From an uncultured Bacilli bacterium (GTDB taxonomy: Bacteria; Bacillota_I; Bacilli_A; RF39; UBA660), in assembly GCA_934101115.1 (NCBI GenBank), contig CAKOPW010000001.1, forward strand, positions 73,295 to 137,294: a stretch of 64,000 nt of DNA. Direction: 5' to 3'. A program made the translations under genes and the position numbers. The notes beneath the pieces are model-generated. The model saw only the letters and a list, made by a program, of their open reading frames with translations. It had not been told where the DNA came from and did not search any database. This document shows positions 32,274 through 48,889 of the stretch, one piece after another. Position 1 is the first letter of the stretch, and every line of letters begins with the position of its first letter.

Positions 32274-32621
32274 TTAATCTCCAAAAAATTTGCTTATCGG
32301 CCTTTCAACTTTAGTTAGTACTTCAGGACTTTTTTTAGTTAATTCTTGAATAATACTTATAGCTTTTTGGGCGTTATTTACATGATGTTCAATGTTATCC
32401 ATATTAACATTTTTAAAAATTGATGTTAGTTCACTAATTTTATCCCTAGTTGAAGATGTATCAATATCTTCTTTAAAATATTTACTCCACACATCATTTT
32501 CTTCACCATATATATCATATATTTCATAAAAATCCTGAAAAGTCATCTCTTTGTTTTTAATAAATCTTAATATTTCAGGGTGTTTACTTAAAAAACTTTT
32601 GAATTCACTTTTTTTATCCAT
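32274..32621 (-). CDS. YlbD-like protein
   Basis: 115 aa. FKSFLSKHPEILRFIKNKEMTFQDFYEIYDIYGEENDVWSKY matches my recollection of the YlbD N-terminus. Confidence 0.4.
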   Translation of the reverse strand: MDKKSEFKSFLSKHPEILRFIKNKEMTFQDFYEIYDIYGEENDVWSKYFKEDIDTSSTRDKISELTSIFKNVNMDNIEHHVNNAQKAISIIQELTKKSPEVLTKVERPISKFFGD

Positions 32622-32668
32622 AGAAAAACCACCTAATATATTATATTTATACTAGGTGGTTTAAATTA

Positions 32669-35173
32669 CTATATTTTGAAATCTTCAATAAATTCCATTT
32701 TTTCTTGCTTTTCTTGTTCTTCTGTTTTTACTACTTTCTTTTTAGTATCGTCAAAATGTACCTTTTCAATATCGGCAAAAACAAATGCTGATATAAATTT
32801 CTTCTTAGCAATAGATGAACCAGTTGACGCAAGATCCATTATTGGAATATCAGTATTTTTCAGTTCCCCAATATCTTCTAACATTGTTAAACCAATTTGA
32901 TCTTTTGTTTGAGTAATTAAAGCAGAAACAATTTCGTAGTTAGTCGTTTTTACTTTCTTAATTACCATACTACCTCTTTTTGCTCGAGATAATTGGTCAA
33001 GTTCATTTAATTTAACACGTTTAGCTGTTTTTTGATTTGTGAAAATATCTAAATACTCGTCAGTATCATCATATGTTAAACCAGCTACTACTTCATCATC
33101 TTTTAAGTTTATTCCTTTTACTCCGCTTGATTTTGTACTTGATAAAGGAATTTCAGTAGTTTTATAAGAAATATAGTAACCACTTTTAGTAACAATCATC
33201 GTGTTTTCTTTTTTATAATCAACAAATTTAACTTCATCTTCATCTTTAAGTTTAATGTATGTATATAGTTTTGTATATCTACTTACAAATAAGTCTTTGA
33301 TGTTTGTACGTTTAACCATTCCACTCTTAGTAACAACTAAGAGATTATCATCACTGACGTTTTCATTTACGATAAATGAATTTAATACTGAATCTTCAGG
33401 AGAAATAGTTACTAAGTTGGATACATGTTTTCCTAAATCTTTCCACTTGCACCATGGAATATCGTTAACAGGAACATAAATGTAATTTCCTTTTTTAGTT
33501 AATATAGCCATTTTATTTATTGTGCTTGTTTCAAAAATATTTAAAGCATAATCTCCTGGTTTTAGACCTGTCTCATCACCGTTAGCTGAAGTGTATGATT
33601 TCATTGGTACTTTTTTAATATAGCCATCATGAGTTAAAACAACCATAACGTTTTCTTTGATAATTAAATCTTCTGCAGAAATATTAATTTCTTTAGCTGT
33701 TTCTCTGATCTCCGTTTTTCTTGGGACTCCATATTCACGTTTAATCTTACGAAGCTCTTCTTTAGCAACAAGTGCCAACTTTTCTTCACTCGAAAGAATT
33801 TCTCTTAAACCAGCAATTATCTTATTTAAACTTTCTAATTTATTTTGCAATTCCAAAATATCGGTATTAGTAAGTTTATATAGTTGTAACATAACAATTT
33901 TTTCTGCTTGGGCTTCACTAAAACCAAATTCTTTTACTAAATTGGCTTCAGCATCACCTTTATTTTTACTTGCTCTAATAACTGCTATAACCTCATCCAA
34001 TATAGATATTGCTTTAACAAGGCCTTCTGTGTAATGTACTTCCTTTAAAGCAACATTTAAGTCAAATTCGCTTCTTAATTTTATGATTTCTTTTAAATGA
34101 GCAATATAAGCATCAATTATACCGACAATACCAAGAAGTTTTGGGCGACGGTTAACGATAGTTACCATGTTATATGTGTAATTACATTGGCAATCGGTAT
34201 TTTTAAGCAAGTAATTCATTACAAGTTCTTTATTGGCTCCTGATTTTAAGTCAATTACAATTCTAACGTTGGCATCCTTATCAGATTCATCCCTAACTTC
34301 AGCAATACCTTGAACTTTATTATCAATTCTAATATCATCAATTTTTTTAACAAGTTGTTGTTTGTTTACCTCAAAAGGAATTTCACTTATAACGATTTTA
34401 TCTTTACCTTTTTCTTGAACAAACTCATATTTACTTGAAATAACTACTTTACCTCTACCGGTTTCAAAAGCTTGTCTTATACCATCTGTTCCTTCAATTA
34501 TTCCGCCTGTTGGGAAGTCTGGTCCTTTAACTATATCTAAAATAGTTTCAAACTTACAATTTGGAGAATCGATTCTTTTAATAACTGCATCTATTACTTC
34601 ACACAAATTATGTGGAGGAATGTTTGTAGCATATCCAGCCGATATACCATTACTTCCGTTTACTAAAAGATTTGGAAACTTAGCAGGAAGTACAGTTGGT
34701 TCCATTAAAGTATCTGAATAGTTTGGGGCCATTTTTACAGTATTTTTATCAATATCTTTTAAAAGCTCTTCACTTATTTTGGCAAGACGTGCTTCAGTGT
34801 AACGCATTGCTGCTGGAGGATCTCCATCCATTGAACCATTGTTTCCGGATATTTCTACTAAAATATGATTTTGTTTCCAATCTTGTCCCATACGAACAAG
34901 CGCATCATATATTGATGAATCTCCGTGTGGATGATATTTACCCATGACATTACCAACTGCATTAGCACATTTTTTATATTGTTTGTCATAAGTGTTTTTA
35001 TCACGATACATCGCAAAGATTATTCTTCTTTGAACAGGCTTTAATCCGTCTCTTACGTCTGGTATTGCTCTATCTTGAATAATATACTTTGAATATCTAC
35101 CAAAACGTAGTCCCATAATTTCTTCAAGGGCACACTCGTGAATTTTTCCTATAACTTCTTCTACTTTCTTCAT
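32669..35173 (-). CDS. parC: DNA topoisomerase IV subunit A
   Basis: FGRYSKYIIQDRAIPDVRDGLKPVQRRI (the ParC-type rather than GyrA-type N-terminus). YHPHGD is present. AGGTGA lies 5 nt before the ATG at 35173. Confidence 0.85.
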   Translation of the reverse strand: MKKVEEVIGKIHECALEEIMGLRFGRYSKYIIQDRAIPDVRDGLKPVQRRIIFAMYRDKNTYDKQYKKCANAVGNVMGKYHPHGDSSIYDALVRMGQDWKQNHILVEISGNNGSMDGDPPAAMRYTEARLAKISEELLKDIDKNTVKMAPNYSDTLMEPTVLPAKFPNLLVNGSNGISAGYATNIPPHNLCEVIDAVIKRIDSPNCKFETILDIVKGPDFPTGGIIEGTDGIRQAFETGRGKVVISSKYEFVQEKGKDKIVISEIPFEVNKQQLVKKIDDIRIDNKVQGIAEVRDESDKDANVRIVIDLKSGANKELVMNYLLKNTDCQCNYTYNMVTIVNRRPKLLGIVGIIDAYIAHLKEIIKLRSEFDLNVALKEVHYTEGLVKAISILDEVIAVIRASKNKGDAEANLVKEFGFSEAQAEKIVMLQLYKLTNTDILELQNKLESLNKIIAGLREILSSEEKLALVAKEELRKIKREYGVPRKTEIRETAKEINISAEDLIIKENVMVVLTHDGYIKKVPMKSYTSANGDETGLKPGDYALNIFETSTINKMAILTKKGNYIYVPVNDIPWCKWKDLGKHVSNLVTISPEDSVLNSFIVNENVSDDNLLVVTKSGMVKRTNIKDLFVSRYTKLYTYIKLKDEDEVKFVDYKKENTMIVTKSGYYISYKTTEIPLSSTKSSGVKGINLKDDEVVAGLTYDDTDEYLDIFTNQKTAKRVKLNELDQLSRAKRGSMVIKKVKTTNYEIVSALITQTKDQIGLTMLEDIGELKNTDIPIMDLASTGSSIAKKKFISAFVFADIEKVHFDDTKKKVVKTEEQEKQEKMEFIEDFKI

Positions 35174-35242
35174 TCTATTCACCTATTGCTAATTATAGCA
35201 TAAGAAAATAAAAAAATGTCAAATTTTGACATTTTTTTGACA

Positions 35243-35533
35243 TTACTTATTTATGAAGTTTAATATTTCTTCTTTAGATTGTAAACCAATCATCTTATTA
35301 GTTTCGCTTCCATCTTTAAATAAAATTAAAGTAGGAATGCTCATTACTCCAAATTTTTGAGCTAGATTAGGAAACTCATCAGTATTAACTTTTAAGATGT
35401 CAGCATCTACTGTTTCAAGTATTTCTCCCATAATTTTACATGGACCACACCATTCTGCAAAGAAATCTACTAATACACATCCTTTAGCAGTTAAATTCAA
35501 GAAATCCTCTTCGTTTTTAAGATATTTTATCAT
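35243..35533 (-). CDS. trxA: Thioredoxin
   Basis: WCGPCK active site. The ATG at 35533 is better spaced from GAAAGGA than the ATG at 35542. Confidence 0.9.
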   Translation of the reverse strand: MIKYLKNEEDFLNLTAKGCVLVDFFAEWCGPCKIMGEILETVDADILKVNTDEFPNLAQKFGVMSIPTLILFKDGSETNKMIGLQSKEEILNFINK

Positions 35534-36254
35534 TTTTATCATTCCTTTCTTTTTCGCTTAATATTTCATCAATATTATCAATTTTTAATTTTCCTTTTTC
35601 GTTAAGTTTTTTTACACTTTCTTCACTTATAACATCATATTTTAAAAGTATTCTTATCGATTCTTCATTACCTTTAGATTTATCGGATACTCCATCATAT
35701 TTTAAACACACATCGTAGATATCCATAATCGAATTATAAACATTGTTGGTCATCTTAGATATAATTGGCGTTTTCGAAAGAATTGTTGGAGCGATTGTGG
35801 ATTCTTTAAAGTATGGAGTAAAGAACGGAATAGACGCTAAAACAAACAAAACAATGAATGTATAGATATAATACTCCAAAACTTTTAAAAATGCACCTAT
35901 TAATTTGCTTGGTAAAGCTAAGATTATTGTCGCAGATATAAGCTTATCAATAATTCCAGTAAGTTTAATTACAATTTTTAGAATTGCTGATAGAACAATT
36001 AAACATATTATGTATGAGATTGCTTCATATAAAATTATATTTAAAGCTGCAATTCCTGAAAATATTCCTCCAAATGTATGAAATGGTAAGTTTTCATACA
36101 TAAGTACACTTAATGGGTTCTTTAAGTAATATGCTCCAACAAAAACAAATAAAGAACCAACTAATGATACTGCACTTCTTACAAACCCATATTTGAAACC
36201 ACGATAAATTCCAAATACAAGAATAATTATTATTAATATATCCAATATAGACAT
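35517..36254 (-). CDS. cvpA: CvpA-family membrane protein
   Basis: N-terminal MSILDILIIIILVFGIYRGFKYGF and 4 TM helices, typical of CvpA. Confidence 0.75.
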   Translation of the reverse strand: MSILDILIIIILVFGIYRGFKYGFVRSAVSLVGSLFVFVGAYYLKNPLSVLMYENLPFHTFGGIFSGIAALNIILYEAISYIICLIVLSAILKIVIKLTGIIDKLISATIILALPSKLIGAFLKVLEYYIYTFIVLFVLASIPFFTPYFKESTIAPTILSKTPIISKMTNNVYNSIMDIYDVCLKYDGVSDKSKGNEESIRILLKYDVISEESVKKLNEKGKLKIDNIDEILSEKERNDKNDKIS

Positions 36255-36373
36255 TTTTAATCCCTCACTACTATTATACTTTGAAAATTTTTTAATATTC
36301 TAAGTACCTTAATTATAATATAATTTTGTTTAAAAAAGCAATTACTTATGATAAAATTTAATCAGGTGATTTC

Positions 36374-37330
36374 ATGAAACAACAAACTATCGTATTTAAA
36401 ATATCGGATAATTTAAAAAATAAAGTAATAGATTTTTATAAAGATCGTGCTCTTCCAAATCATCCACCCTATTCCGTATTTCAAGTTAAAGATTATGACT
36501 GTGTTATCACATTATATGAATCCGGAAAATTAATGTTTCAAGGAATAGGCGCTGATATTGAAGCAAGCTATTGGATGGAAGAAGAAAGAATCAACAATAA
36601 TCGTGATTTAGAAAAAGAATTAAAGGATAAACAAGATAAAAAAGACAAAAAAGATGAAGAACTAAATGATACTCGTTTTAAAAATATTTCTACTATCGGT
36701 TCTGATGAAGTTGGAACTGGAGATTATTTTGGTCCTATAATTGTAACGGCATCTTTTGTGGATATAAGTAAAAAATCTTTTCTTTATGACTTAGGAGTAA
36801 GAGATTCAAAAAAAATTACTGATGAAAAAATAATGTCTATCGCACCTACTTTAATAAAAGAATTTCCTCACGTTACATATATCTTGACTCCAAGTGATTA
36901 TAACCGTTTAGGAATTACTAATATGAATAAAGTAAAAGCTATATTGCATAATAAAGTATTGTTTGCATTAAAAAATAAAAACTATAACTATGATAAAATT
37001 GTAGTTGATCAATTCTGCTTTCCAACTAAATATTATGAGCATATAAAGGAAACACCAAATAAGGTTACAAATATTACATTTACTACTCATGCTGAAGATA
37101 AGTGTCTAAGTGTTGCTGTTTCAAGTATTATTTCAAGATATATTTTCATTAAAGAAATGGAAAAAATGGAAGATCAATTAAAAATGAGAATTCCAAAAGG
37201 TGCTGGCGATATCGTAGATCAAACAGGTGTGAAGATCGTTAATAGTTATGGAATAGAAAAATTAAAAGATATTGCAAAATTAAATTTTAAAAATACCGAT
37301 AAAATTAAAGAGTTCTTACAAATCAAGTAA
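36374..37330 (+). CDS. rnhC: Ribonuclease HIII
   Basis: N-terminal substrate-binding domain followed by an RNase HII/HIII core: GSDEVGTGDYFGP, DSKK. Confidence 0.88.
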   Translation: MKQQTIVFKISDNLKNKVIDFYKDRALPNHPPYSVFQVKDYDCVITLYESGKLMFQGIGADIEASYWMEEERINNNRDLEKELKDKQDKKDKKDEELNDTRFKNISTIGSDEVGTGDYFGPIIVTASFVDISKKSFLYDLGVRDSKKITDEKIMSIAPTLIKEFPHVTYILTPSDYNRLGITNMNKVKAILHNKVLFALKNKNYNYDKIVVDQFCFPTKYYEHIKETPNKVTNITFTTHAEDKCLSVAVSSIISRYIFIKEMEKMEDQLKMRIPKGAGDIVDQTGVKIVNSYGIEKLKDIAKLNFKNTDKIKEFLQIK

Positions 37331-38245
37331 GAACTCTTTTAATGCATAAATTTGGTCATAACCACTTTTTAATTTTAAATCTAGATTGGATAAAGAAACA
37401 ATTATATCTTTTAATTGATCAAGAGTATAAATTTTTCCGTTTCTTTTTAATACTCCTACTCTTTTTGGATTAGAATATCCAAATAGTTTAGCTATTTCTT
37501 CATCACTTAAACCATCAGCAGAAGCACTTTTTACCATATAAATGTTGGTAAAACTACTAGCAAGAAGTGCTACTATATTAATTGGTTCACTTCCATTTTT
37601 TAATAGAGTATCTAAATATTTAAATCCTAAATTAAAATCCTTAGCTATTATCGCATTTGAAAAAGCAAATGTTACATCCTCATCATTTTTTTTAGTGTTT
37701 GAAGCAACTAAATCATGAGTTATATTGTTGCTTAAATTGGAAAGCCTTTCAATCTCATTGATAGTTATATCTATATTATTTGAACTATTATTATATATTT
37801 CCAATAAAGCATCTCTATTTATACTTATATTCTCTTTTTTAAAATAATCAACTATATAAGTTACAACATCATCTTCATTATTACCAGTTAAATCAATAAA
37901 TTTTACTCCTAAAGAAATTAAATCTTTTACAATTTTTTTAGATTTTAAAACTTCGTCATTAATAAAAATTACCATTGTCTCATCATCTAAATTGGATAAT
38001 GCACTTTTTAATTTATTGCATTCTTCCTCATATGAAAAATTACCAGCAAAGTATTTTACGTTTTTTACAATTATACATTTGCTCTCAGAAAAAAGTCCAA
38101 AATGTTGCATGCTTTCTATTACATCATCAATCAAATCTTCCACTAAAGAAAAATTTTCAATCTCTTTGTAGTCTTTACTAAGCTCTTTGATTTTATCATT
38201 TAAAAATGTAAAACTATTTGATTTAATAATGTATTTATTTTCCAT
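37316..38245 (-). CDS. holA: DNA polymerase III delta subunit
   Basis: Starts at MENKYIIKSN, ATG at 38245 with GGTGGA upstream. The 53 upstream codons in the ORF track are the antisense of tRNA-His. Confidence 0.75.
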   Translation of the reverse strand: MENKYIIKSNSFTFLNDKIKELSKDYKEIENFSLVEDLIDDVIESMQHFGLFSESKCIIVKNVKYFAGNFSYEEECNKLKSALSNLDDETMVIFINDEVLKSKKIVKDLISLGVKFIDLTGNNEDDVVTYIVDYFKKENISINRDALLEIYNNSSNNIDITINEIERLSNLSNNITHDLVASNTKKNDEDVTFAFSNAIIAKDFNLGFKYLDTLLKNGSEPINIVALLASSFTNIYMVKSASADGLSDEEIAKLFGYSNPKRVGVLKRNGKIYTLDQLKDIIVSLSNLDLKLKSGYDQIYALKEFLLDL

Positions 38246-38336
38246 ATGATCCACCTTTAAAATTATAGCATTTAAAATTAATATAATAAAGGACTTGCAA
38301 TACATAAAATTATTTGATAGAATTAGATATGTCAAT

Positions 38337-38413
38337 GGCGAAATTGGTGAAGTGGTTAACACGCCGGATTGTGGCTCCGGTATGCGTGGGTTCGATTCCC
38401 ACATTTCGCCCCA
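38337..38413 (+). tRNA. tRNA-His (GTG)
   Basis: Hand-folded. G-1 pairs with C73. Acceptor GCGAAAT/ATTTCGC. Anticodon stem CCGGA/TCCGG with loop TTGTGGC. T-arm GTGGG-TTCGATT-CCCAC. CCA is encoded. Confidence 0.9.
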
Positions 38414-38423
38414 TTGAAAAATT

Positions 38424-38454
38424 AAAACTAAGAATTAATTTCTTAGTTTTTTTC
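38424..38454 (+). terminator. tRNA-His terminator
   Basis: AAAACTAAGAA-ttaat-TTCTTAGTTTT followed by a T-run. Confidence 0.75.
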
Positions 38455-38484
38455 TTGCAAATAATATCGAACATTTGTTATAAT
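38455..38484 (+). promoter_or_regulatory. Near-consensus promoter of the small-peptide mRNA
   Basis: TTGCAA (38455-38460), 18 nt, then extended -10 TGtTATAAT (38476-38484). Confidence 0.65.
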
Positions 38485-38551
38485 TTTACTAGGAATATCA
38501 GTTGTTGAGTGTCTACCTCCATTCTTTATAGAGAGGAGGTTCTTGATATAT

Positions 38552-38647
38552 ATGGGAAAGAAAGATTTCTTAATCTTAAGCTTGATCATTATAATCATTT
38601 TGTTAATAGCCTTACTCTTCATTACTTTGAAGCAGTATCACCTATAA
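38552..38647 (+). CDS. 31-aa hydrophobic peptide, candidate type I toxin
   Basis: MGKKDFLILSLIIIIILLIALLFITLKQYHL. GGAGG (38535-38539) lies 12 nt upstream and can pair with CCTCC (38516-38520). Confidence 0.6.
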   Translation: MGKKDFLILSLIIIIILLIALLFITLKQYHL

Positions 38648-38758
38648 ATAAAAACGACACTCATCTGCAAAGATAAGTGTCTACAATATTTTCAGGTAGA
38701 CATTCAACATGCAAAAACTGAATGTTCCCTTTTTTATTGTATGCAATATCGCATCTCT
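38648..38758 (-). ncRNA. Candidate antitoxin antisense RNA (about 110 nt)
   Basis: Minus strand has TTGCAA (38793-38788), 17 nt, then TAATAT (38770-38765). It ends with terminator GACACTTATCT-ttgc-AGATGAGTGTC plus GTTTTTATTT (38681-38646). It overlaps the 3' UTR of the peptide mRNA. Confidence 0.5.
38700..38736 (+). terminator. Terminator of the peptide mRNA
   Basis: ACATTCA-acatgcaaaaac-TGAATGT followed by TCCCTTTTTTA. Confidence 0.65.
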
Positions 38759-38944
38759 AAATACATATTACTACATATGTTTTTATTTTGCAAGAAAATA
38801 TATGGTTTTACTATTGTTAGAAGAAACTTATAAAATGCATAAATCTCTATTATCTATATTGTAACTTTCGTTCAACATTTAAAAATTTTGTGTTTTCATA
38901 TTGACGTATTTTTTTGAAATCAAGTTTTACTACACTGCTTATAA

Positions 38945-39796
38945 TTATAAATCGTTTTTCGTTATATAATCAGCCAATTTCAAAGCCATATCAAAATATC
39001 TGCCATCATGTTGTGTGCCTTTTATTTCTCCAGGAATTTTTCTTTCATCCCATTCTGGGGCATCTAGTAAATCACCGCTTATAAAAAACGTATAAAGATT
39101 TAAATTTCTAAATTGACACATTGCCTCTACTGAAGCACATTCCATTTCCACTGATATACACCCATCAGCTTTATGTTTTTCAAAATTATTTTTAGTTTCT
39201 CTATAAAAAGCATCGGTAGTCCATGTCTTACCTAAAACATATGGAATATTATATTCTTTCATAAAATTAGCAACTATACTATTATTCTTAATTTCAATAT
39301 AATCTGATGCTTTAGCATAATGATATGATGTTCCCTCGTCTCTATAAGCCTCAGTAGGAATAATAACCTTGCCCATAGTAATTTCTTTGTTTAAGCATCC
39401 TGCTCCACCAAATAAAACATATTTATTAACATTAAGTTCCTGGAATGAATCTTCGATTGATCCAACACATGCTGGTCCACCAACGTAAGTTCTAAAAAAA
39501 GCAAACTTATGGCCATTATATTCAAGTTCATATATTGGCGTAATCCCAGTTACAAATTTATACTCTGCAATTTTTACACAATTATAATTATCTAAAATGT
39601 ATTGCTCAATAATGTTTGAAAATGTAATTATACAAGCATCCACTTTAATCGCATGTTCTTTTCTTTTTGGATTGATAATTGCTTCTGATTTATCATCAAA
39701 TGAATTAATTATCACATAATCACTACCTTTCAAGACAATTATACAGGATTTTTTATGTCTAATCAAGATTGTGTCTTTCTTGTTTTCAAAGCACAA
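38945..39796 (-). CDS. Nucleoside phosphorylase family protein (PNP/UDP type)
   Basis: GGAGCL...IPTEAYRDEGTSYHY...SVEMECASV pattern. The start is uncertain, since the listed start is a TTG. Confidence 0.65.
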   Translation of the reverse strand: MCFENKKDTILIRHKKSCIIVLKGSDYVIINSFDDKSEAIINPKRKEHAIKVDACIITFSNIIEQYILDNYNCVKIAEYKFVTGITPIYELEYNGHKFAFFRTYVGGPACVGSIEDSFQELNVNKYVLFGGAGCLNKEITMGKVIIPTEAYRDEGTSYHYAKASDYIEIKNNSIVANFMKEYNIPYVLGKTWTTDAFYRETKNNFEKHKADGCISVEMECASVEAMCQFRNLNLYTFFISGDLLDAPEWDERKIPGEIKGTQHDGRYFDMALKLADYITKNDL

Positions 39797-39999
39797 TTGC
39801 CCTTGTCAAAAGTATTTATTGTTATGCTTATTATCACACTATTGATCACTTTACTCATCAATTGAAAAATTAAAACTAAGAATTAATTTTCTTAGTTTTT
39901 TCTTGCAAATAATATCGAACATTTGTTATAATTTCACTAGGAACATCAGTTGTTGAGTGTCTACCTCCATTCTTTATTGAGAGGAGGTTCTTGGTATAT

Positions 40000-40083
40000 A
40001 TGGGAAAGAAAGATTTCTTAATCTTAAGCTTGATCATTATAATCATTTTGTTAATAGCCTTACTCTTCATCACTTTGAAGTAG
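40000..40083 (+). CDS. 27-aa variant of the hydrophobic peptide
   Basis: MGKKDFLILSLIIIIILLIALLFITLK. The CAG codon of copy 1 is TAG here (40081-40083). Confidence 0.5.
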   Translation: MGKKDFLILSLIIIIILLIALLFITLK

Positions 40084-40095
40084 TATCACCTATAA

Positions 40096-40206
40096 ATAAA
40101 AACGACACTCATCTGCAAAGATAAGTGTCAAACCATATTTTGGGTAGACATTCAACTTAGCCATACTGAATGTTCCCTTTTTTATTGTATGCAATATTGC
40201 ATCTCT
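40096..40206 (-). ncRNA. Candidate antisense RNA, copy 2
   Basis: TTGCAA at 40241-40236, 17 nt, then TAATAT. The terminator hairpin is the same as in copy 1. Confidence 0.45.
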
Positions 40207-40289
40207 AAATACATATTACTACATATGTTTTTATTTTGCAAGAAAATATATTATTGTATATTATTGTATACATAAACACCTGCTTGAAT

Positions 40290-41426
40290 TTATTTCTTCA
40301 AGTTATCCTTTTTTAAGTTTTCTTGAATAAAAGCATCAAGGTCTTTAAAAATCAATTCTTTTTGTATAAATATAGAGCGATGATTTCCTTCATACATTAT
40401 GGAAGTTGAGTTTAATCCAAGACTCTCGTAAATTTTTTGTTGCTTTATAAATCTTTCTTGCACTCTTGTTCCAAGTACTTTATTGATACAATTTACATCT
40501 TCGTCACTAAATAAACCATATTTTGCAGTATAATTACCATTTTCATCTAAAACAAATACTTGGTTTCCATTTTCGTCAATTCTTGGAGTTAAATTACCAC
40601 ATTCGTCCCTATATAGTTCTTCTTCTCCTTTATCATTTATAAAAGTATAGTTTTCAAAATAAGGTATAGCCGAATCTGATTTATCCGCATCACCAACATA
40701 AAAGAAAAAAGATATTTTTTTAAAAGATTCAAAATCAAAATTTGGTAATCCACTTATTCCTGTTGGGTATTTAAATTCATAACCGCCCATTTCTGAAACT
40801 GGCATTGAAATTGCTCCACCTGTCCCACCAGCGATAACTCCTTTTATTATTTCTAGGTGTAATAAAGATAAGTGCGAAACAAATTTTGCTCCTTCTGAGT
40901 AACCACATAAGGTTGCTTTTTCAGAAACATCTATTTTTTCTGCTTTTAAAATATTTACAGCAGTTTCGATTATAGCTTTATGTTGATCAGCCAAGTTTTT
41001 ATACATATACATATATTTTTCAAAGCGTTTATCATTTCCTTTTAATTCAAAATCATTCAAAAGGCAATCTCTTCCCAAAAAGTTTGGTCTAAAGTCTTTT
41101 AATCTTGGAATATAAGGAATAACCATAGGATTTCCATCATCAACGCATAAATGGTAATGAATTGGATCTATTGATCTAAATTTTCTTCTTTCTTCTACAT
41201 TTTCTTCCTTTGCACAATATATCAATTCTTCCATTGTTGAACAATTTTCAGAATTATTAGCAGTAAGATTACAAGCATATATCAATTCCGGATTCTCAAC
41301 TATCGTTTGAGGAATAATTATTATAAACGGAAAATAAAATCCTAATTCAGGATTAGCTTCCACTTCTATGCAATTTACAACTGCACCTTTAAAGTTCATT
41401 TGTTTCATAAAATCATCTACTTTCAT
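40290..41426 (-). CDS. Alpha/beta-hydrolase-like protein
   Basis: 378 aa. A GYSEG (GxSxG-type) nucleophile elbow followed by GGTGGA. Confidence 0.45.
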   Translation of the reverse strand: MKVDDFMKQMNFKGAVVNCIEVEANPELGFYFPFIIIIPQTIVENPELIYACNLTANNSENCSTMEELIYCAKEENVEERRKFRSIDPIHYHLCVDDGNPMVIPYIPRLKDFRPNFLGRDCLLNDFELKGNDKRFEKYMYMYKNLADQHKAIIETAVNILKAEKIDVSEKATLCGYSEGAKFVSHLSLLHLEIIKGVIAGGTGGAISMPVSEMGGYEFKYPTGISGLPNFDFESFKKISFFFYVGDADKSDSAIPYFENYTFINDKGEEELYRDECGNLTPRIDENGNQVFVLDENGNYTAKYGLFSDEDVNCINKVLGTRVQERFIKQQKIYESLGLNSTSIMYEGNHRSIFIQKELIFKDLDAFIQENLKKDNLKK

Positions 41427-41488
41427 AGATGATTATAGCATGCCTCATTTATTTTATAAAACTTTTTCAAAAAAAGCGATGACCCAAA

Positions 41489-42255
41489 TCATCGTTTTGT
41501 ATTAATGCTCTTACTATAGTATTGTTTTATATATTCATAACCTTTTTTGATTTTTTCTTCAATTGATATATGCTCAGAATATATTGCTCTCAACTTATCC
41601 ATCACCAACTCACCATTATCATACAAATCATAAAAAGAATTGTAACCACGCTCGTTAAAACTAAATTGACTTAGAAATGGTTCATTATTTAGAATTGGAT
41701 CTGTTACCATTTCGCTATATTGCCAACATAAATGTGGAGAATCAAATTCTTCTCTTGGTGTATCAGGATATATCTCTTTCCACTTTTCAAACCATGCAAA
41801 GTGGAGAGTCTCATGTGCGCATAAATTAACAATCACATTATCAGGAACACTATGGAAATCGAAAAAGAGAAACTATCTAGATATCTTGGACATACAGGTA
41901 AAATTCCAATTGAAGCATCTATTGTTTTAAATTTTTCTGGAAATTCAACCTCAAAAAAATCAATTAAGAGTTTAAAATACTTGTCATTAACTTCGTCCCA
42001 TATTTTACTGCATGTTTTTACTTTGTTTTCAATTACATTATTTAACTTCTTGTATCTATCACTTAAAACTTTTTCAATTGCTAAAAACACTTCTTCTTTC
42101 GGAGAATTCAAATTATACTTTTTTAGTTCTGGAAAAGCTTCTAAAGTATAATCATGCAATGATAAGCTTTCTCCATTTTCATAAAAAGCTTCTTTGACAA
42201 AATTAATGTTTTCTTTTAAAGTCATCTTTCTAAAAATTATTGTTGGATAATTCAT
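41489..42255 (-). pseudogene. HExxH-motif gene split by a +/-1 frameshift (ORFs 41833-42255 and 41489-41836)
   Basis: The downstream frame is already open from 41872 and reads FLFFDFHSVPDNVIVNLCAHETLHF, continuing smoothly from ...CPRYLDS of the upstream frame. An A5/T5 run lies at 41862-41866. Confidence 0.5.
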
Positions 42256-42884
42256 TATATGCCTCCATTGCCTATTCTTCTATCATACTCTTTTATATAA
42301 ACAGGAAATTTCTCGTACCATTTCAAAAACTCTTTTTCATCACCAAAAGAATATAGTTTATACCCTTCTTTTGTTATGTATTTTTCTTTTAGATCCAAGA
42401 AATTTTTTATAAACTTTTGTCCATCAAGTGTTTGACCTTCAGCGCACATATTCTTAAAATTTATTCCCCTGCTCATTAAATCGTTAATTTTTTTATTCAT
42501 TCCTTTTAATAGGTAACTTAAAACTAATTTATCATCTCTATACTTTTTATCAATTGCAGCTACAGAAACTAAAAGATTATAGCTATTGTTGTCTTGATAG
42601 GCTTCTAAAGATTCATAATTTAACTCAGTATCAGATAGTTCATTTTTCATAAAGTCTGTAAATTGTTTATCTGTTAATGGTAACAAAGTTATTTCTCCAA
42701 TAATACAATCAGAAATTACATCTCTTACAAAAATGTTAATATCTCTATTTTTACTATCCCATAGCATAACTTGCTCTACACTTGATATTGTTTCTGGTTC
42801 TAAATAATCATGTTCTATATTCCAAACATCATCAAAATCTTTTTTTGTATGGTTATAAAATTCAATTACATATCTTTCTTTCAT
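42255..42884 (-). CDS. Hypothetical protein, possibly GNAT-like
   Basis: 209 aa. Its stop overlaps the next start (ATGA). Only a weak acetyltransferase-like layout. Confidence 0.3.
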   Translation of the reverse strand: MKERYVIEFYNHTKKDFDDVWNIEHDYLEPETISSVEQVMLWDSKNRDINIFVRDVISDCIIGEITLLPLTDKQFTDFMKNELSDTELNYESLEAYQDNNSYNLLVSVAAIDKKYRDDKLVLSYLLKGMNKKINDLMSRGINFKNMCAEGQTLDGQKFIKNFLDLKEKYITKEGYKLYSFGDEKEFLKWYEKFPVYIKEYDRRIGNGGI

Positions 42885-43006
42885 ATGGGATTCTCCTTAA
42901 TCTTTATTTTACCATATTTTATTAGTTCTGCAATTATTATCCATTTATGTCGAATGTGAAATAACTTTCTTTATATATGATATAATTAATTTTAGAGGTG
43001 ATACAC

Positions 43007-44632
43007 ATGACAGATATAGAAATAGCTTCTTCATGTAAAATGAAGCTAATTAAAGATGTTGCGAATTCTATTGGTATTGATGAGTTAATTGAAAATTATG
43101 GAAATTATAAAGCAAAAATAAACTATGATAAAATAAATAATTCTAAAAATGGTAAATTGGTTCTAGTAACATCGATACATCCTACTCCATATGGTGAGGG
43201 AAAAACTACTTTGTCAATTGGAATAAATGATGCTCTAAAAAAAATTGGTAAAAATAGTATTGTTGTTTTAAGAGAACCATCACTTGGTCCTACTTTTGGG
43301 ATGAAAGGCGGCGCTACTGGAGGAGGAAAATCTCAAGTTGTTCCTATGGAAGATATAAACCTACATTTTACAGGAGATATGCATGCAATAACATCTTGTA
43401 ACAATTTATTATGTGCGCTTATTGATAATCATATATATCATGGTAATGAGCTTGAAATAGACCCAAATTCTATTTGTTTTCATAGAACTCTTGATATGAA
43501 TGATCGTGCTTTAAGAAGAATATCCTTAGATACTCGTAAAGAACGTTTTTGCATTACAGCTGCAAGTGAAATTATGGCAATACTTTGTTTGGCAAAAAAT
43601 ATGACTGATTTAAGAAAACGACTTGATTCTATTTTAATCGGTTACACTTATAATAAAACACCTATTTTTGCTCGAGATTTAAAGGCAACTGATACCATGA
43701 TGATTCTTTTAAAAGATGCAATGAAACCTAATCTAGTTCAATCCTTTGAAAACAATCCGGTAATTATCCATGGTGGTCCTTTTGCAAATATTGCTCATGG
43801 TTGTAATTCTTATATTGCAACTAGTACTGCTCTTTCATTAAGTGATTATGTTATTACTGAAGCTGGATTTGGATCAGATTTAGGTGCTGAAAAATTTTTT
43901 GATATAAAGTGCCGTTTAGGATTAAAACCTGACTTAGTTATATTAAACTGTACTGTTCGTGCTTTGAAACATAACGGCTATTGCAATGAAACAGATATTC
44001 TTACACAAGATCATAAGTTTTTGAATGCTGGTTTATGTAACCTTGAAGCGCATATTGATAATCTTAAAAAATTTACAAACAATATTCTTGTAGTTTTAAA
44101 TCGTTTCAATACTGATACTTTAGAAGAAATTAATATCATAAGAGAATTTGTTCATGAAAAAAATATTCCTTTTGAAATAAGTGATGCTTATAAAAACGGA
44201 AGTGTTGGAGCACTAGAGATTGCTAAAAGAATAGTTGAGCTAACTAACAAACCTTCCTCTTTTAAATTTTTATATGATTTAAATGATTCTATTCAAAATA
44301 AAATTGAGATTATTTGTAAAGATATTTATCACGCAAAAAATGTTATTTATACAGATGACGCACTTATACAATTAAAAAATATAGAAAACTTAGGATTTAG
44401 TAACTTACCAATATGCATAGCTAAAACGCAATATTCTTTTAGTGATGATCCTAAAAAACTTGGAAATCCAACAAATTATGATGTAACAGTACAAAAATTA
44501 GAATTAAAAAGCGGAGCTGGATTTATTGTTTGTTTTTTAGGAAGTATTATAGATATGCCTGGCCTTCCTAAACATCCAAATGCACTTGATATGAAAATTG
44601 ATGATAATTTAAAAATAAGCGGACTATTTTAG
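43007..44632 (+). CDS. fhs: Formate--tetrahydrofolate ligase
   Basis: PTPYGEGKTT P-loop and the typical FTHFS sequence throughout. AGAGGTGA precedes the ATG at 43007. Confidence 0.93.
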   Translation: MTDIEIASSCKMKLIKDVANSIGIDELIENYGNYKAKINYDKINNSKNGKLVLVTSIHPTPYGEGKTTLSIGINDALKKIGKNSIVVLREPSLGPTFGMKGGATGGGKSQVVPMEDINLHFTGDMHAITSCNNLLCALIDNHIYHGNELEIDPNSICFHRTLDMNDRALRRISLDTRKERFCITAASEIMAILCLAKNMTDLRKRLDSILIGYTYNKTPIFARDLKATDTMMILLKDAMKPNLVQSFENNPVIIHGGPFANIAHGCNSYIATSTALSLSDYVITEAGFGSDLGAEKFFDIKCRLGLKPDLVILNCTVRALKHNGYCNETDILTQDHKFLNAGLCNLEAHIDNLKKFTNNILVVLNRFNTDTLEEINIIREFVHEKNIPFEISDAYKNGSVGALEIAKRIVELTNKPSSFKFLYDLNDSIQNKIEIICKDIYHAKNVIYTDDALIQLKNIENLGFSNLPICIAKTQYSFSDDPKKLGNPTNYDVTVQKLELKSGAGFIVCFLGSIIDMPGLPKHPNALDMKIDDNLKISGLF

Positions 44633-46234: not shown

Positions 46235-46792
46235 TTATGAATTATTACCAATTTCATCAGCAAGTTTATCAAGTGTTGCTTCTCTTCTATCTTCTCTTGA
46301 CGTGTTAATTAAAGTAAATCCGTATTTTAGACAATCTTTTTTTAATAACTCATTTTTTTCTAAAATTTCCTTAACATTTCTTTCTATATCTTCAATGCCT
46401 ACATAAGCTGGCCAATCAAAAGGTTTAGAATATTTTTTCATGTCTTCTCTAATATTGGCTTCATCAGCATCCAAATTAGCTAAAAAATAAATTTCCACTT
46501 TATCCTTATATTCAAACATAGATAATTGTTTAGGTGTAAAAATATATTCATAAATTGTGCTTACTCCATAATTCTTGGCATCATCTAAACTCCTTCTTGC
46601 CATTTCATTTAATAATGTAACATATTTATCATCATTATGATCTTGTAAAACCTTAAAAGATTCTTCAAGTGAATCTAATAACATATCAAAATTATAGTAA
46701 TTAAAATTGTATTTTTGATGAAGTTTCATTGTAAGTGTTGTTTTACCAGCTCTCTTGTTTCCAGCAATAATTACTACTTTTCCATTTTTCAT
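46235..46792 (-). CDS. P-loop NTPase/kinase-like protein
   Basis: Walker A GNKRAGKTT at residues about 11-19. 185 aa. Confidence 0.5.
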   Translation of the reverse strand: MKNGKVVIIAGNKRAGKTTLTMKLHQKYNFNYYNFDMLLDSLEESFKVLQDHNDDKYVTLLNEMARRSLDDAKNYGVSTIYEYIFTPKQLSMFEYKDKVEIYFLANLDADEANIREDMKKYSKPFDWPAYVGIEDIERNVKEILEKNELLKKDCLKYGFTLINTSREDRREATLDKLADEIGNNS

Positions 46793-46899
46793 TAAATCAC
46801 TTCCATAACTTAATTATAACTAATAAAGCGTTTTTATTAAAGAAAAACAAAAAAACTTGCATACAATTTATGCAAGCTCATTAGTTTTTACAAAGATTT

Positions 46900-47763
46900 T
46901 TAAAATACATGATAATGATCCAATAATTTCTTTGATTTACTATTATAAATGTCATTAGAGACAGTATGCGGAGTATATTCATTTTGTTGAGCAAATTTAA
47001 AAATCCAATCACTCAATAATATTTTATATATTTCTTCATAGCTTGTCGCAACTCCTGTATCATCTAAAAACGATTTTTCTGTCATTAGTCTTATACGCCT
47101 TTGACGATCTTTATAACTATCAACGGAATTTTCATATCCATGCTGATTATTTAGATATTGAATAATATTTAAAACATTTTCATATGCGTATTTAAAGGCA
47201 TAATGCTCATCTGGATTTGCTATATAAAGGTAAAACGCTTTCTTTATATCAGCTTGTTGTTGTTTTTCTGAAACTTCGTGACACTCAAAATAAGTTTTAT
47301 ATTCTTTTAATTCGCGATATAATTCACCTTCACCTTGATTTAATTCTAAAATCAAATGATGAAATAAAGCATGAAATTGTTCATGTAACATTGAATCTAA
47401 AAGGCATAAATTGAAACCATCAACTTCTTTGTAAGTTATTTCTTTTGTTTCTGGATTATATACTTCTTCTTTTCCTTCAAAAATATACTTTTCATTAAAT
47501 AATATTTTACCTGATTTTCCATCTTTACCCAAAATTATTCCGGCGTTCATTAATCTTACATCTCTTTTGTCAGACACAACTTCATATGGTTTCCTATTTT
47601 GTTTTTCTGCTTCAACATTTTCTAATTCTTGTAAAAGAGCTAAACGTTCAAAAGGTTCAAGTGATGAAAATACAGATGAATGAAATAAATAGAATAACTT
47701 TGTTTCTTTTCCAATTATATCAGAATTTATGTATTTTCTTGAACGCATAACTTTGTTTAACAT
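46900..47763 (-). CDS. Hypothetical HExxH-motif protein
   Basis: LHEQFHALFHH. Start MLNKVMR has AAAGAGGGG upstream, and its own promoter is TTGCAA-17 nt-TAAAAT. Confidence 0.45.
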   Translation of the reverse strand: MLNKVMRSRKYINSDIIGKETKLFYLFHSSVFSSLEPFERLALLQELENVEAEKQNRKPYEVVSDKRDVRLMNAGIILGKDGKSGKILFNEKYIFEGKEEVYNPETKEITYKEVDGFNLCLLDSMLHEQFHALFHHLILELNQGEGELYRELKEYKTYFECHEVSEKQQQADIKKAFYLYIANPDEHYAFKYAYENVLNIIQYLNNQHGYENSVDSYKDRQRRIRLMTEKSFLDDTGVATSYEEIYKILLSDWIFKFAQQNEYTPHTVSNDIYNSKSKKLLDHYHVF

Positions 47764-47820
47764 TATTATCCCCTCTTTAATAACGTTAGTTATTTTAGCA
47801 AAATTTGAAAATAATTGCAA

Positions 47821-47849
47821 ATAAAAAATAGATTCGTCACCACAATCTA
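47821..47849 (-). terminator. Terminator after the RT operon
   Basis: On the minus strand: TAGATT-gtggtgacg-AATCTA followed by TTTTTTAT. Confidence 0.55.
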
Positions 47850-47860
47850 CTTTAAGTACT

Positions 47861-48889
47861 TCATTTTAAATTATTATTACATAAAATTGCCTCAATCTTA
47901 TTCACATAGTTATATGAATTAGAATGACTTGCATGTCCTAAAAAAGAATTATAACTTAATAAAAATTTTTTATCATAAAACATATTATTGTTTTTTAAAT
48001 ATATCCATTGTTTAATTGACTTCTTTACTTTCTTTTTAAAGCGTTTTCTAAGAAGAATATGTGTTGGATAAATAATATATCCACAAAAATCAATACCTAA
48101 TTTATTAGGATAATATCTGCTTTTATGATTAAGCGACAGATTTAAATGGGCACTTACAAAAGTTGAAACTAAGTTGAGCACTTCTTTTGCTTCATCTTTG
48201 GTTTTTAAAATAAAAATCTGATCGTCCATATATCTTGTATAAAATTTTATTTTTAGTTCATCTTTTACATAATGGTCTAATTCATTTAAATAAATATTGG
48301 CAAAGAACTGACTGGTATAATTACCAATTGGAATTCCGACTTCGTTGCCATCATCAAGAATTTTTTTACTGAATTCAAGTAATTTTTTATCTTTAATTTT
48401 TGATGCTAAAATCTTTAATAATATTTCTTTATCTATACTATAAAAATATTTTTTTATATCGGTTTTTAAAATATAACAGTTTTTTCCATATAGTTTAGTT
48501 GCATTTCTCAATTGATTTTGAACACATATAACTGATTTATGCGTTCCTCGATTATCTAAACATGCATATGTATCATTGATGAACCGTTTCATAAAATAAG
48601 GCTTTATAAATTCTTCAACATACCATTGATGAACTATACGATCACGGTAAGGCAAAGATTTTATTATTCTTTCTTTTGGTTCATGAATAACAAATTCTCG
48701 ATATTCACCAAACTTATAAGTATTATTTTTTATCTCGTCCATTATTCTTATAAGATTAGTTTCTAATTCCATTTCAAATATTATTACTTCTTTTTTAGTC
48801 TTTTTACCTTTAGAAGCACGTATGTGGGCACTTAACATTTTTTCGAAAGTCAATTTAGATAGAAAAACATTTTTTATTGTTTTAGGCAT
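47861..48889 (-). CDS. DGR reverse transcriptase
   Basis: EPKERIIKSLPYRDRIVHQ, LKTDIKKYFYSID, PIGNYTSQFFANIYL (the DGR-specific IGxxxSQ block) and YTRYMDDQ. Collinear with my recollection of Bordetella phage Brt. Confidence 0.9.
   Translation of the reverse strand: MPKTIKNVFLSKLTFEKMLSAHIRASKGKKTKKEVIIFEMELETNLIRIMDEIKNNTYKFGEYREFVIHEPKERIIKSLPYRDRIVHQWYVEEFIKPYFMKRFINDTYACLDNRGTHKSVICVQNQLRNATKLYGKNCYILKTDIKKYFYSIDKEILLKILASKIKDKKLLEFSKKILDDGNEVGIPIGNYTSQFFANIYLNELDHYVKDELKIKFYTRYMDDQIFILKTKDEAKEVLNLVSTFVSAHLNLSLNHKSRYYPNKLGIDFCGYIIYPTHILLRKRFKKKVKKSIKQWIYLKNNNMFYDKKFLLSYNSFLGHASHSNSYNYVNKIEAILCNNNLK

Follow-up and report, generated by a model that had tools for sequence, protein, structure and literature searches.

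What is the repeated element that begins at the very end of a tRNA-His gene in an uncultured Bacilli bacterium? We analyzed a 64,000-nt stretch of contig CAKOPW010000001.1, referred to below as the window, in which a 395-bp direct repeat occurs at 38413-38807 and again at 39861-40255, with 93% identity between the copies. Each copy, or module, contains an open reading frame (ORF) for a short hydrophobic peptide and a promoter that faces it from the opposite strand. A first-pass annotation, made from the sequence alone, had described copy 1 as a candidate type I toxin-antitoxin locus, in which a small hydrophobic toxin is paired with a convergent antisense RNA. Having compared the module with its homologues, we consider that each copy is probably a type I toxin-antitoxin locus of the bsrG/SR4 design, and we put the probability of this at roughly 0.78. 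Judged from sequence comparison, the support is unusually strong for a locus that carries no annotation, and a specialist would not be surprised to meet type I systems in Firmicutes-like gut bacteria.

Results and Discussion

The module recurs across low-GC gut Bacilli

The first-pass annotation had seen a two-copy repeat, correctly, and given the module as 391 bp. The unit is in fact 395 bp long, starts at the 3' end of the tRNA-His gene, and includes an upstream hairpin (38424-38450). Copy 2 (+ strand) sits 1448 nt downstream of copy 1, and the window contains no third copy.

Homologues were sought in one genome per GTDB species with the pattern GGAGG-N8-14-ATGGGNAARAARGAYTTY, which returned 75 loci. 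About 29 of the 75 encode hydrophobic peptides of 22-34 residues starting with MGKKDFLI; the others are chance hits at ordinary protein starts. The pattern constrains nothing but the Shine-Dalgarno sequence (SD) and six codons, so what the loci share in peptide length, hydrophobicity, and flanking RNA elements was observed independently of it. The roughly 29 loci all come from gut metagenome-assembled genomes (MAGs) of 24-30% GC, labeled Bacilli, Tenericutes, Erysipelotrichaceae, or Firmicutes. Further copies, without the MGKKDF peptide, were recovered by an nhmmer profile built from the module, and the total in low-GC gut MAGs is about 35 loci. A pattern for the 3' untranslated region (UTR) matched at least 120 metagenome contigs; counts derived from metagenomes rest on the matches listed, among which at least 114 contigs carry real modules. 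Human, rumen, and other animal gut metagenomes are the sources of the family. The module thus recurs in more than 100 independent loci, which answers the suggestion in the first-pass annotation that it be sought in related genomes.

Modules occur singly or in arrays with a spacing of about 340-390 nt, up to four per contig, and several copies may share one genome. Twenty of the 151 modules adjoin a tRNA gene. The closest relative of the window (CAKOJJ01 from a Hadza gut, our locus L021) is 93% identical to window positions 32399-38799 and carries one module at the same tRNA-His gene; its synteny with the window ends exactly at the module end. In two other loci (L036 at 3407-3855 and L073 at 3197-3646, - strand), the module directly after tRNA-His encodes a peptide of a second class (MKKRLFIVKVLELISIILLLLITLIIVIKK and MMKKRNFVIKVLRYITIILFLLIIMIIVIKK), and a module with an MGKKDF-type peptide stands in tandem behind it. 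The SD of the first module in L073 is mutated to TGAGG.

One partial module is also worth describing. On the - strand of locus L007 (2006-2226) only the 3' half of the module is present, comprising the antisense gene, its promoter, and its hairpins, and scoring 85 bits with the covariance model R1 described below. The mRNA promoter, the 5'UTR, and the start of the peptide ORF are missing. This copy is either an orphan antitoxin or a decaying module.

Searches of existing collections returned no known family. In Rfam only the tRNA reached the gathering score, and the list to E<=10 for 38300-40400 consisted of chance hits of the snoRNA and miRNA type. Rfam antitoxin RNAs comprise 13 type I families (PMC8594479). 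Pfam, NCBIfam, and PHROGs gave no peptide-family match, only chance transmembrane matches (NCBIfam and Pfam to E<=10). None of the eight peptides tried was present in a collection of 15 billion proteins, where exact look-ups gave no called gene or cluster. BLASTN with the module found no match in PLSDB plasmids, and in GenBank phages just 54-nt AT-rich chance matches to Staphylococcus phages. In IMG/VR a peptide pattern gave no hits, and a looser 3'UTR pattern gave 80, none of which was a real module by nhmmer, in a scan saturated by chance hits; thus, these searches give no evidence for carriage by phages. The literature search found no text containing "MGKKDFL" and none joining type I toxin-antitoxin systems with Erysipelotrichaceae. 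The family appears to be separate from the named ones, with BsrG/SR4 compared through family libraries and architecture rather than direct alignment, and it appears to be undescribed so far.

The peptide ORF has a coding signature

The ORF of copy 1 (38552-38647, + strand, ATG start) encodes 31 amino acids, MGKKDFLILSLIIIIILLIALLFITLKQYHL, and was described in the first-pass annotation as a hydrophobic peptide with a short polar tail. The ORF and its hydrophobic helix hold up, but the length and the tail belong to copy 1 only. The family norm, found in copy 2 (40000-40083, + strand), in L021, and in most homologues, is a peptide of 27 amino acids ending in LLFI[IT]LK before the stop. Codon 28 is CAG in copy 1 and TAG elsewhere, which adds four codons (QYHL); the polar tail thus arose recently in copy 1 and does not characterize the family. 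Between the K/D residues near the N-terminus and a final K, the peptides carry about 20 consecutive hydrophobic residues.

Among 17 distinct homologues with 27 codons, the variability at the three codon positions was 0.77, 0.47, and 1.07 bits, i.e. in the order 3>1>2. Synonymous changes made up 752 of the 1902 codon differences (40%), leaving 1150 non-synonymous ones, and half of the amino-acid changes exchanged one hydrophobic residue for another. The +1 frame of these ORFs is packed with stops. Length conservation, the entropy pattern, the synonymous share, and the closed alternative frames all suggest that the small ORF is a coding gene.

Two other start or frame assignments were considered and rejected. 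The antisense ORF of 59 or 65 amino acids (65 at 39876-40073), which the first-pass annotation already regarded as spurious, is a mirror artifact of the hydrophobic ORF, and its reverse frame is broken in 6 of the 17 distinct homologues. An upstream TTG start at 38543 was set aside because the conserved feature is the ATG with its SD spacing; this ATG lies 8-12 nt past the SD, at 8-10 nt in most homologues.

The same RNA scaffold is common to more than 60 distinct peptides of 24-32 amino acids among the matches listed, and ORF length, start codon, SD, and hydrophobic character are preserved across them. Three peptide classes of 25-31 amino acids could be distinguished, each starting with a basic N-terminus, continuing through about 20 hydrophobic residues, and ending in K or KK: class A with 27 amino acids (MGKKDFLI...), class B with 30 (MKKRNFVIKVLRY...IVIKK), and class C with 25 (MTKRENSFF...). 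The 30-residue peptide MKKRNFVIKVLRYITIILFLLIIMIVVIKK is the commonest among the metagenome matches listed and adjoins tRNA-His in L036 and L073, and the 25-residue peptide MTKRENSFFIIILLLFFLVFKLLTK sits on the same scaffold.

A predicted antisense RNA gene is conserved on the opposite strand

The first-pass annotation had placed a consensus promoter on the opposite strand of copy 1, and it is present there and conserved throughout the family. It occupies 38793-38765 on the - strand, with the -35 box TTGCAA at 38793-38788, a spacer of 17 nt, and the -10 box TAATAT at 38770-38765, and its predicted transcription start site (TSS) is near 38758. In copy 2 the corresponding boxes lie at 40241-40236 (-35) and 40218-40213 (-10), on the same strand. 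A score of at least 10/13 was reached by the antisense promoter in 79 of 114 homologues, compared with 6 shuffled sequences. Its position is fixed, and 94 of the 114 have a TG-extended -10 box.

From this promoter an antisense RNA of about 113 nt would be transcribed in copy 1 (38646-38759, - strand). It is predicted to fold into stem-loop SL1 (38753-38742), an A-rich linker, SL2 (about 38729-38695), and SL3 (38681-38656), the last being a terminator hairpin followed by the U-run GTTTTTATTT. The claim of an RNA of about 110 nt with its own terminator thus agrees with the hairpins conserved in the family. The counterpart in copy 2 spans 40094-40207 (- strand), with SL1 at 40201-40190 and the terminator at 40130-40103. 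The minimum free energy (MFE) of the predicted 115-nt RNA is -31.6 kcal/mol (z = -4.1 against dinucleotide shuffles). When homologous antisense RNAs were folded independently, all 26 of 26 formed SL1, the linker AUAAAAUAAAAAA, SL2, and the terminator SL3 with its U-run.

In an unfitted MAFFT alignment, 87.6% of the cells of this structure were paired, as against 30-41% in slid controls, with 98% for SL2 and 94% for SL3. SL1 was out of register in that alignment (63% paired), with slightly differing hairpin offsets, and it was therefore judged by independent folding and by a covariance model (CM) alignment. By folding, 82% of 96 distinct SL1 segments reached -3 kcal/mol or lower, compared with 12% of shuffles. 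The CM, R1, was built from the unfitted MAFFT alignment and finds 125 copies, with scores of 111 bits for copy 1 and 109.5 bits for copy 2. In the CM alignment of these 125 sequences (A5), 26 of 28 pairs show compensatory changes, including all 11 of SL3, whereas shuffles gave 16.1 +/- 1.4 and none of 500 reached 26; this control is to be read with the caveats that the alignment is fitted to the model and that the sequences are related.

The structure is specific to the antisense strand. The hairpins are more stable on that strand in 111 of 118 modules for SL3 and in 91 each for SL2 and SL1. U-G wobbles are frequent there, where the mRNA strand would have A-C mismatches, and the SL1 loop is most often GAAA, which is a GNRA tetraloop solely on the antisense strand (both window copies have AUAU). 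R1 scores about 100 bits on the antisense strand vs about 35 bits on the opposite one. Because SL1 is located past the mRNA terminator, it is difficult to account for its conservation unless the - strand is transcribed. The predicted antisense RNA matches about 90 nt of the mRNA 3'UTR with perfect complementarity, and its 3' end falls about 10 nt past the stop codon of the 27-amino acid form, so that it does not overlap that ORF.

The mRNA is predicted to be closed by a long-range helix

As the first-pass annotation stated, a near-consensus promoter lies upstream of the peptide ORF, at 38455-38484 on the + strand of copy 1 (TTGCAA at 38455-38460, 18 nt, TGtTATAAT with the -10 box at 38479-38484; predicted TSS near 38491). 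A promoter scan gave it 10 of 12 consensus matches plus the TG; the copy 2 promoter occupies 39903-39932. In the 109 homologues, 64-67 nt separate the end of the -10 box from the ATG; a score of at least 10 was reached by 49 of them, compared with 6 shuffled sequences.

The predicted mRNA of 250 nt has an MFE of -74.7 kcal/mol (z = -6.4 against dinucleotide shuffles). In this fold the CCUCC at 38516-38520 pairs with the SD GGAGG at 38535-38539 in an anti-SD hairpin (38516-38539, + strand). The first-pass annotation had proposed this sequestration and suggested RNA folding as a check; the fold, the mostly paired SD, and some compensatory changes in the hairpin (pairs 34-61 to 44-51) bear it out. 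In copy 2 the equivalent elements are CCTCC at 39964-39968 and GGAGG at 39983-39987. The probability that the SD is unpaired, P(unpaired), is 0.21 in copy 1, 0.09 in copy 2, and 0.03-0.33 in core members of the family.

A second element had not been noted in the first-pass annotation. The first 26 or so nt of the mRNA (38492-38517, + strand; GGAAUAUCAGUUGUUGAGUGUCUACC) pair with two segments of the 3'UTR, GGUAGACAUUCAAC at 38695-38708 and CUGAAUGUUCC at 38718-38728, and thereby close the molecule, with the CCUCC/GGAGG hairpin stacked directly atop the closing helix. These 3' arms fall in the region 38695-38738, at the end of which the mRNA is predicted to stop (about 38738); those of copy 2 are at 40143-40176. 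The 5'-3' duplex has an energy of -36 kcal/mol in copy 1 (z = -7.4) and -35.1 kcal/mol in copy 2 (z = -8.9). In most of 25 modules computed separately, the best duplex between the 5' and 3'UTRs lay between -29 and -41 kcal/mol, with z between -4 and -9. The sequences of the arms vary in divergent members, such as GGUGCCAC/GUGGCAAC in L014 and GGGUGCUUGCC/GGCAAGCAC in L062.

In a MAFFT alignment of 18 homologues, the MFE structure of the window mRNA was 85% paired, compared with 39-47% in slid controls, and compensatory changes were seen at 13 pairs; the window is itself among the aligned sequences and supplied the structure, which is thereby favored. The 3' arms can also form an alternative terminator hairpin for the mRNA (38699-38726, + strand, with a U-run at 38730-38735). 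RNAalifold chose this hairpin over the long-range helix on the mRNA alignment, which is why the helix was tested explicitly.

The 5'UTR contains one further repeat. Positions 38500-38517 (UUGAGUGUCUAC) and the 3' arm of the hairpin that follows the stop codon (38670-38684; UAAGUGUCUAC) form a short direct repeat, so that the 5'UTR has complementarity to an arm of the mRNA's own hairpin as well as to the antisense terminator arm. L009, L014, and L068 have a covarying counterpart. With this repeat, alternative pairings may be possible, as is the case in metastable toxin mRNAs.

A putative mechanism and the points against it

Based on these elements, we propose how the module could work. A sigma-A-type promoter would produce an mRNA of about 248 nt for a membrane peptide of 27-31 residues with a single helix. 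This mRNA would be inert in two ways, through the CCUCC/SD hairpin and through the 5' arm of about 26 nt bound to two 3'UTR segments, similar to helix P1 of bsrG. The convergent promoter would yield the antisense RNA of about 113 nt, which would pair with the mRNA 3'UTR. Since the antisense RNA is complementary to the very segments that hold the 5' arm, its binding should both form a duplex and free that arm. The duplex, of about 90 bp, would be open to RNase III and other RNases. The displaced arm (with GUCUACC freed) would let CCUCC pair fully with GGAGG, and translation would be blocked further. A dual action of this kind has been shown for SR4 on bsrG, and the accessibility calculation agrees with it: P(unpaired) of the SD drops to 0.00 in both copies when the 3'UTR is blocked. 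Should the antisense RNA be lost, the peptide would be made and inserted into the membrane, and the cell would arrest or die. A plausible role for such a system is the stabilization of variable regions beside tRNA genes.

What the module contains corresponds, at the level of sequence, to the type I class: an apparently coding ORF for a hydrophobic peptide of fewer than 60 amino acids, a candidate antisense gene, and cis elements predicted to silence the mRNA.

Several observations weigh against this interpretation, in addition to the two alignment caveats given above. No homology to proven toxins was detected in the family libraries, and toxicity is assumed from size and hydrophobicity. Many homologues have a weak mRNA promoter, often in the -35 box. 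The SD-AUG spacing in the window copies, at 12 nt, is long. Simple scans missed both the antisense promoter of the window and the + strand terminator. The case for that promoter therefore rests on its family-wide conservation, and the terminator (7-8 bp with a 12-nt loop) went uncalled because it is too AT-rich and long-looped for such a scan. Four loci (L015, L029, L055, and L069) and the third copy of L012 (5143-5507) have no clear 5'-3' helix. The members of this subgroup share the SD and the MGKKDFLI N-terminus and have a longer, different C-terminus (...LDMIKALAHIYI, 32 amino acids) and a different 3'UTR; the four loci all belong to a single Erysipelotrichaceae MAG (CAOJUX01), where each copy has its own contig. 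Finally, every homologue is from an uncultured organism, known through a MAG or a metagenome.

Alternative explanations

The rival that survives best, although we consider it improbable, is that the peptide is a harmless small membrane protein, e.g. a subunit or regulator of a membrane complex, which is tuned by a cis-antisense RNA and takes part in no toxin-antitoxin behavior. It accommodates the coding and antisense evidence equally well and is consistent with the lack of toxin matches in the family libraries, and a review is said to hold that many small hydrophobic proteins of Gram-positive bacteria are non-toxic. The genomic behavior of the module fits it poorly. Selfish toxin modules are typically multi-copy or variable, whereas housekeeping subunits are single-copy and syntenic with their partners. 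The modules are multi-copy, tandem, and variably placed, at synteny breaks and beside tRNA genes; one RNA scaffold carries differing peptide classes; a degenerate copy retains the 3' half only (L007); and translation appears doubly silenced, by the anti-SD and the closing helix.

We give very little credence to the idea that the module is a non-coding intergenic repeat, either a structured terminator or insulator cassette or a gene for a small RNA only, with a fortuitous ORF. Short ORFs are indeed frequent in an AT-rich genome, the conservation of the RNA scaffold exceeds that of the peptide, and the L007 copy lacks the 5' half including the ORF. Chance would nonetheless have had to retain ORF length, start, SD, and hydrophobicity in more than 60 distinct peptides, together with the third-position variability, the 40% share of synonymous differences, and the stops in other frames.

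Least credible of all is that the two copies are attL/attR-like direct repeats of a mobile element that inserted the phosphorylase gene lying between them beside tRNA-His, for although 395-bp direct repeats do surround a single gene next to a tRNA, in a region whose downstream part is non-syntenic with the closest relative, no integrase or transposase was found among the ORFs and Pfam matches examined, L021 carries one full module at this tRNA-His but no phosphorylase gene there, more than 100 other loci have the module alone or in tandem and none has that gene between copies, and the repeats bear conserved genes of their own. Duplication of the module, possibly through recombination, explains the repeats but not the nature of the module.

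Returning to the toxin-antitoxin reading, one extension of it is speculative, and we hold it to be possible rather than likely. The conserved unit could be an RNA chassis, consisting of the 5'UTR with its anti-SD, the 3'UTR docking site, and the antisense gene, on which toxin ORFs are exchanged. Classes A, B, and C sit in scaffolds that are about 75-85% identical, at times side by side after the same tRNA-His (L036 and L073). If this were true, one antitoxin logic would control rotating membrane toxins in reduced-genome gut Bacilli, antitoxins within arrays would possibly cross-react, and possible roles would include the anchoring of variable islets near tRNA genes and phage defense.

The genomic neighborhood

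The tRNA-His gene (GTG; 38338-38413, + strand) was identified by ARAGORN and by Rfam (RF00005, 66 bits), and its last base is the first base of copy 1. The same junction exists in L021, L036, and L073. Within the repeat unit, an inverted repeat forms an AT-rich hairpin followed by a T-run at 38424-38453 (+ strand; AAAACTAAGAA-TTAAT-TTCTTAGTTTT), upstream of the toxin promoter, and it is duplicated with copy 2 (39872-39901). This hairpin is probably the terminator of the tRNA-His gene, and in arrays it may serve as an insulator between successive modules.

A gene of the nucleoside phosphorylase superfamily (PNP_UDP_1; Pfam PF01048, E = 1.4e-18) occupies 38945-39796 on the - strand, between the two modules. 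Its start as listed is a TTG, and there is an inner promoter-like site at 39766-39738; the true start is therefore probably further downstream. The sole exact match to a neighboring protein was in a 4-kb ENA metagenome contig (L001) that is identical to the window, and a phosphorylase gene between copies was seen in these two sequences only. As a component of the system it was rejected, since it lies between modules only in the window organism.

The region 38808-42884, which extends from the tRNA-His module toward the formate-tetrahydrofolate ligase gene (42998-44632), is non-syntenic with L021. Its ORFs at 40290-41426, 41489-41836, 41833-42255, and 42255-42884 had no Pfam or PHROGs match. The region looks like a small variable islet bounded by modules. 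Farther downstream, a reverse transcriptase (RT) gene (RVT_1, 47861-48889, - strand) lies beside an unassigned ORF of 306 amino acids (46900-47820, - strand), and a protein at 46235-46792 (- strand) in the same cluster (46235-48889) matches AAA_14 and nSTAND3 NTPases. This cluster could be a defense-associated RT system.

Significance

To our knowledge, annotation almost always misses type I toxin-antitoxin loci, and the families described so far stem from Proteobacteria and Firmicutes grown in culture. The module family described here is abundant in uncultured low-GC gut Bacilli, where both of its putative genes lack annotation. The nhmmer profile and R1 recover more than 120 copies with clear strand specificity and could serve to annotate both genes. 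The family also supplies many covarying examples of a design in which a 5'-3' closing helix would be competed by a 3'-overlapping antisense RNA; as far as we know, studies of the bsrG/SR4-type design have until now been confined to a few Bacillus loci. For work on toxicity, it offers a panel of very short membrane peptides.

Comparison with known type I systems

In type I toxin mRNAs the key determinants are SD/anti-SD pairs, 5' and terminator stem-loops, and long-distance 5'-3' interactions, and Gram-positive families have their antisense RNA at the 3' side (PMC8594479). The first-pass annotation had likened the peptide to Fst, TxpA, and BsrG and the arrangement to txpA/RatA and bsrG/SR4. These systems resemble the module to different degrees, and the bsrG/SR4 part of that likeness holds best.

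Among more distant systems, hok/sok and aapA1/IsoA1 of Gram-negative bacteria also have a full-length mRNA made inert by a 5'-3' interaction and SD sequestration. Their antisense RNA, however, lies inside the mRNA and targets its 5' part, and 3' trimming activates the message (PMC8594479), whereas the antisense RNA of the module would target the 3' segment of the closing helix; the peptide families are unrelated.

The type I systems of Clostridioides difficile, e.g. CD0956.2/RCd10, likewise combine a gut Firmicute host, a small hydrophobic toxin, and a cis-antisense RNA, and they are often multi-copy near mobile or variable regions. Their toxins are about 50 amino acids long with a Lys-rich C-terminal tail and are found beside CRISPR arrays and prophages. 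The family libraries detected no homology between these toxins and our peptides.

Fst and its relatives (RNAI-RNAII of the par locus on pAD1, SprA1/SprA1AS, and Lpt) share with the module a single-helix peptide of about 30 amino acids with K and D near the N-terminus, an SD sequestered by 5'UTR structure, and multi-copy loci in Firmicutes. The Fst family motif is APxxxG (P11, G15) (PMC8309996). This motif is absent from the module, where MGKKDFLILSLIIIIILLIALLFITLK contains neither Pro nor Gly beyond residue 2, and from the class B and class C peptides as well; no Fst family model was hit in the protein-family libraries. In Fst and SprA1 the functional pairing occurs outside the overlap, at the mRNA 5' end, whereas the obvious pairing site of the module is the overlap of about 90 nt. 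The 5'UTR (UUGAGUGUC) does have 9-13 nt of complementarity to the antisense terminator arm; for the duplex between the antisense RNA and the mRNA 5' region, most modules do not outperform shuffled sequences (z about -1), L068 and L012 being exceptions.

The txpA/RatA pair of B. subtilis has convergent transcripts, a 3' overlap, and a hydrophobic toxin, and its repression is reportedly dependent on RNase III. TxpA has 59 amino acids and RatA is about 220 nt long. RatA overlaps the toxin ORF, which the antisense RNA of the module does not do for the 27-amino acid form, and the module had no Rfam match to RatA down to E<=10 and no protein-family match to TxpA.

The bsrG/SR4 pair belongs to the BsrE-G-H group and lies in the SPbeta prophage of B. 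subtilis. No match to BsrG or SR4 was returned by NCBIfam, Pfam, or Rfam, in a comparison that used these libraries, whose BsrG/SR4 models are unconfirmed, rather than direct sequence comparison. The peptide is shorter (27-31 amino acids vs 38 for BsrG), as is the antisense RNA (about 113 nt vs 183 nt for SR4); the antisense RNAs of the BsrE-G-H group overlap the ORF, whereas that of the module does not for the 27-amino acid form; and the module has no prophage context, stands in tandem arrays, and is found in uncultured low-GC gut Bacilli.

The architecture corresponds in several respects. In bsrG mRNA, helix P1 joins nt 1-35 to 232-262 and closes the molecule, and a 4-bp helix contains the SD (PMC3834814); the module likewise has a predicted long 5'-3' closing helix and an SD within a short helix. 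SR4, an antisense RNA of several hairpins, pairs with the 3' part of bsrG, leads to RNase III decay, and extends the SD helix from 4 to 8 bp (PMC3834814; PMC8309996). The module has a predicted convergent antisense RNA over the 3' part of the mRNA, made of several independent stem-loops that end in a terminator. As antisense binding lengthens the SD helix of bsrG, so blocking the 3'UTR of the module cuts the predicted accessibility of its SD to nothing. On the basis of this analogy, bsrG/SR4, rather than txpA/RatA specifically, appears to be the closest known architecture.

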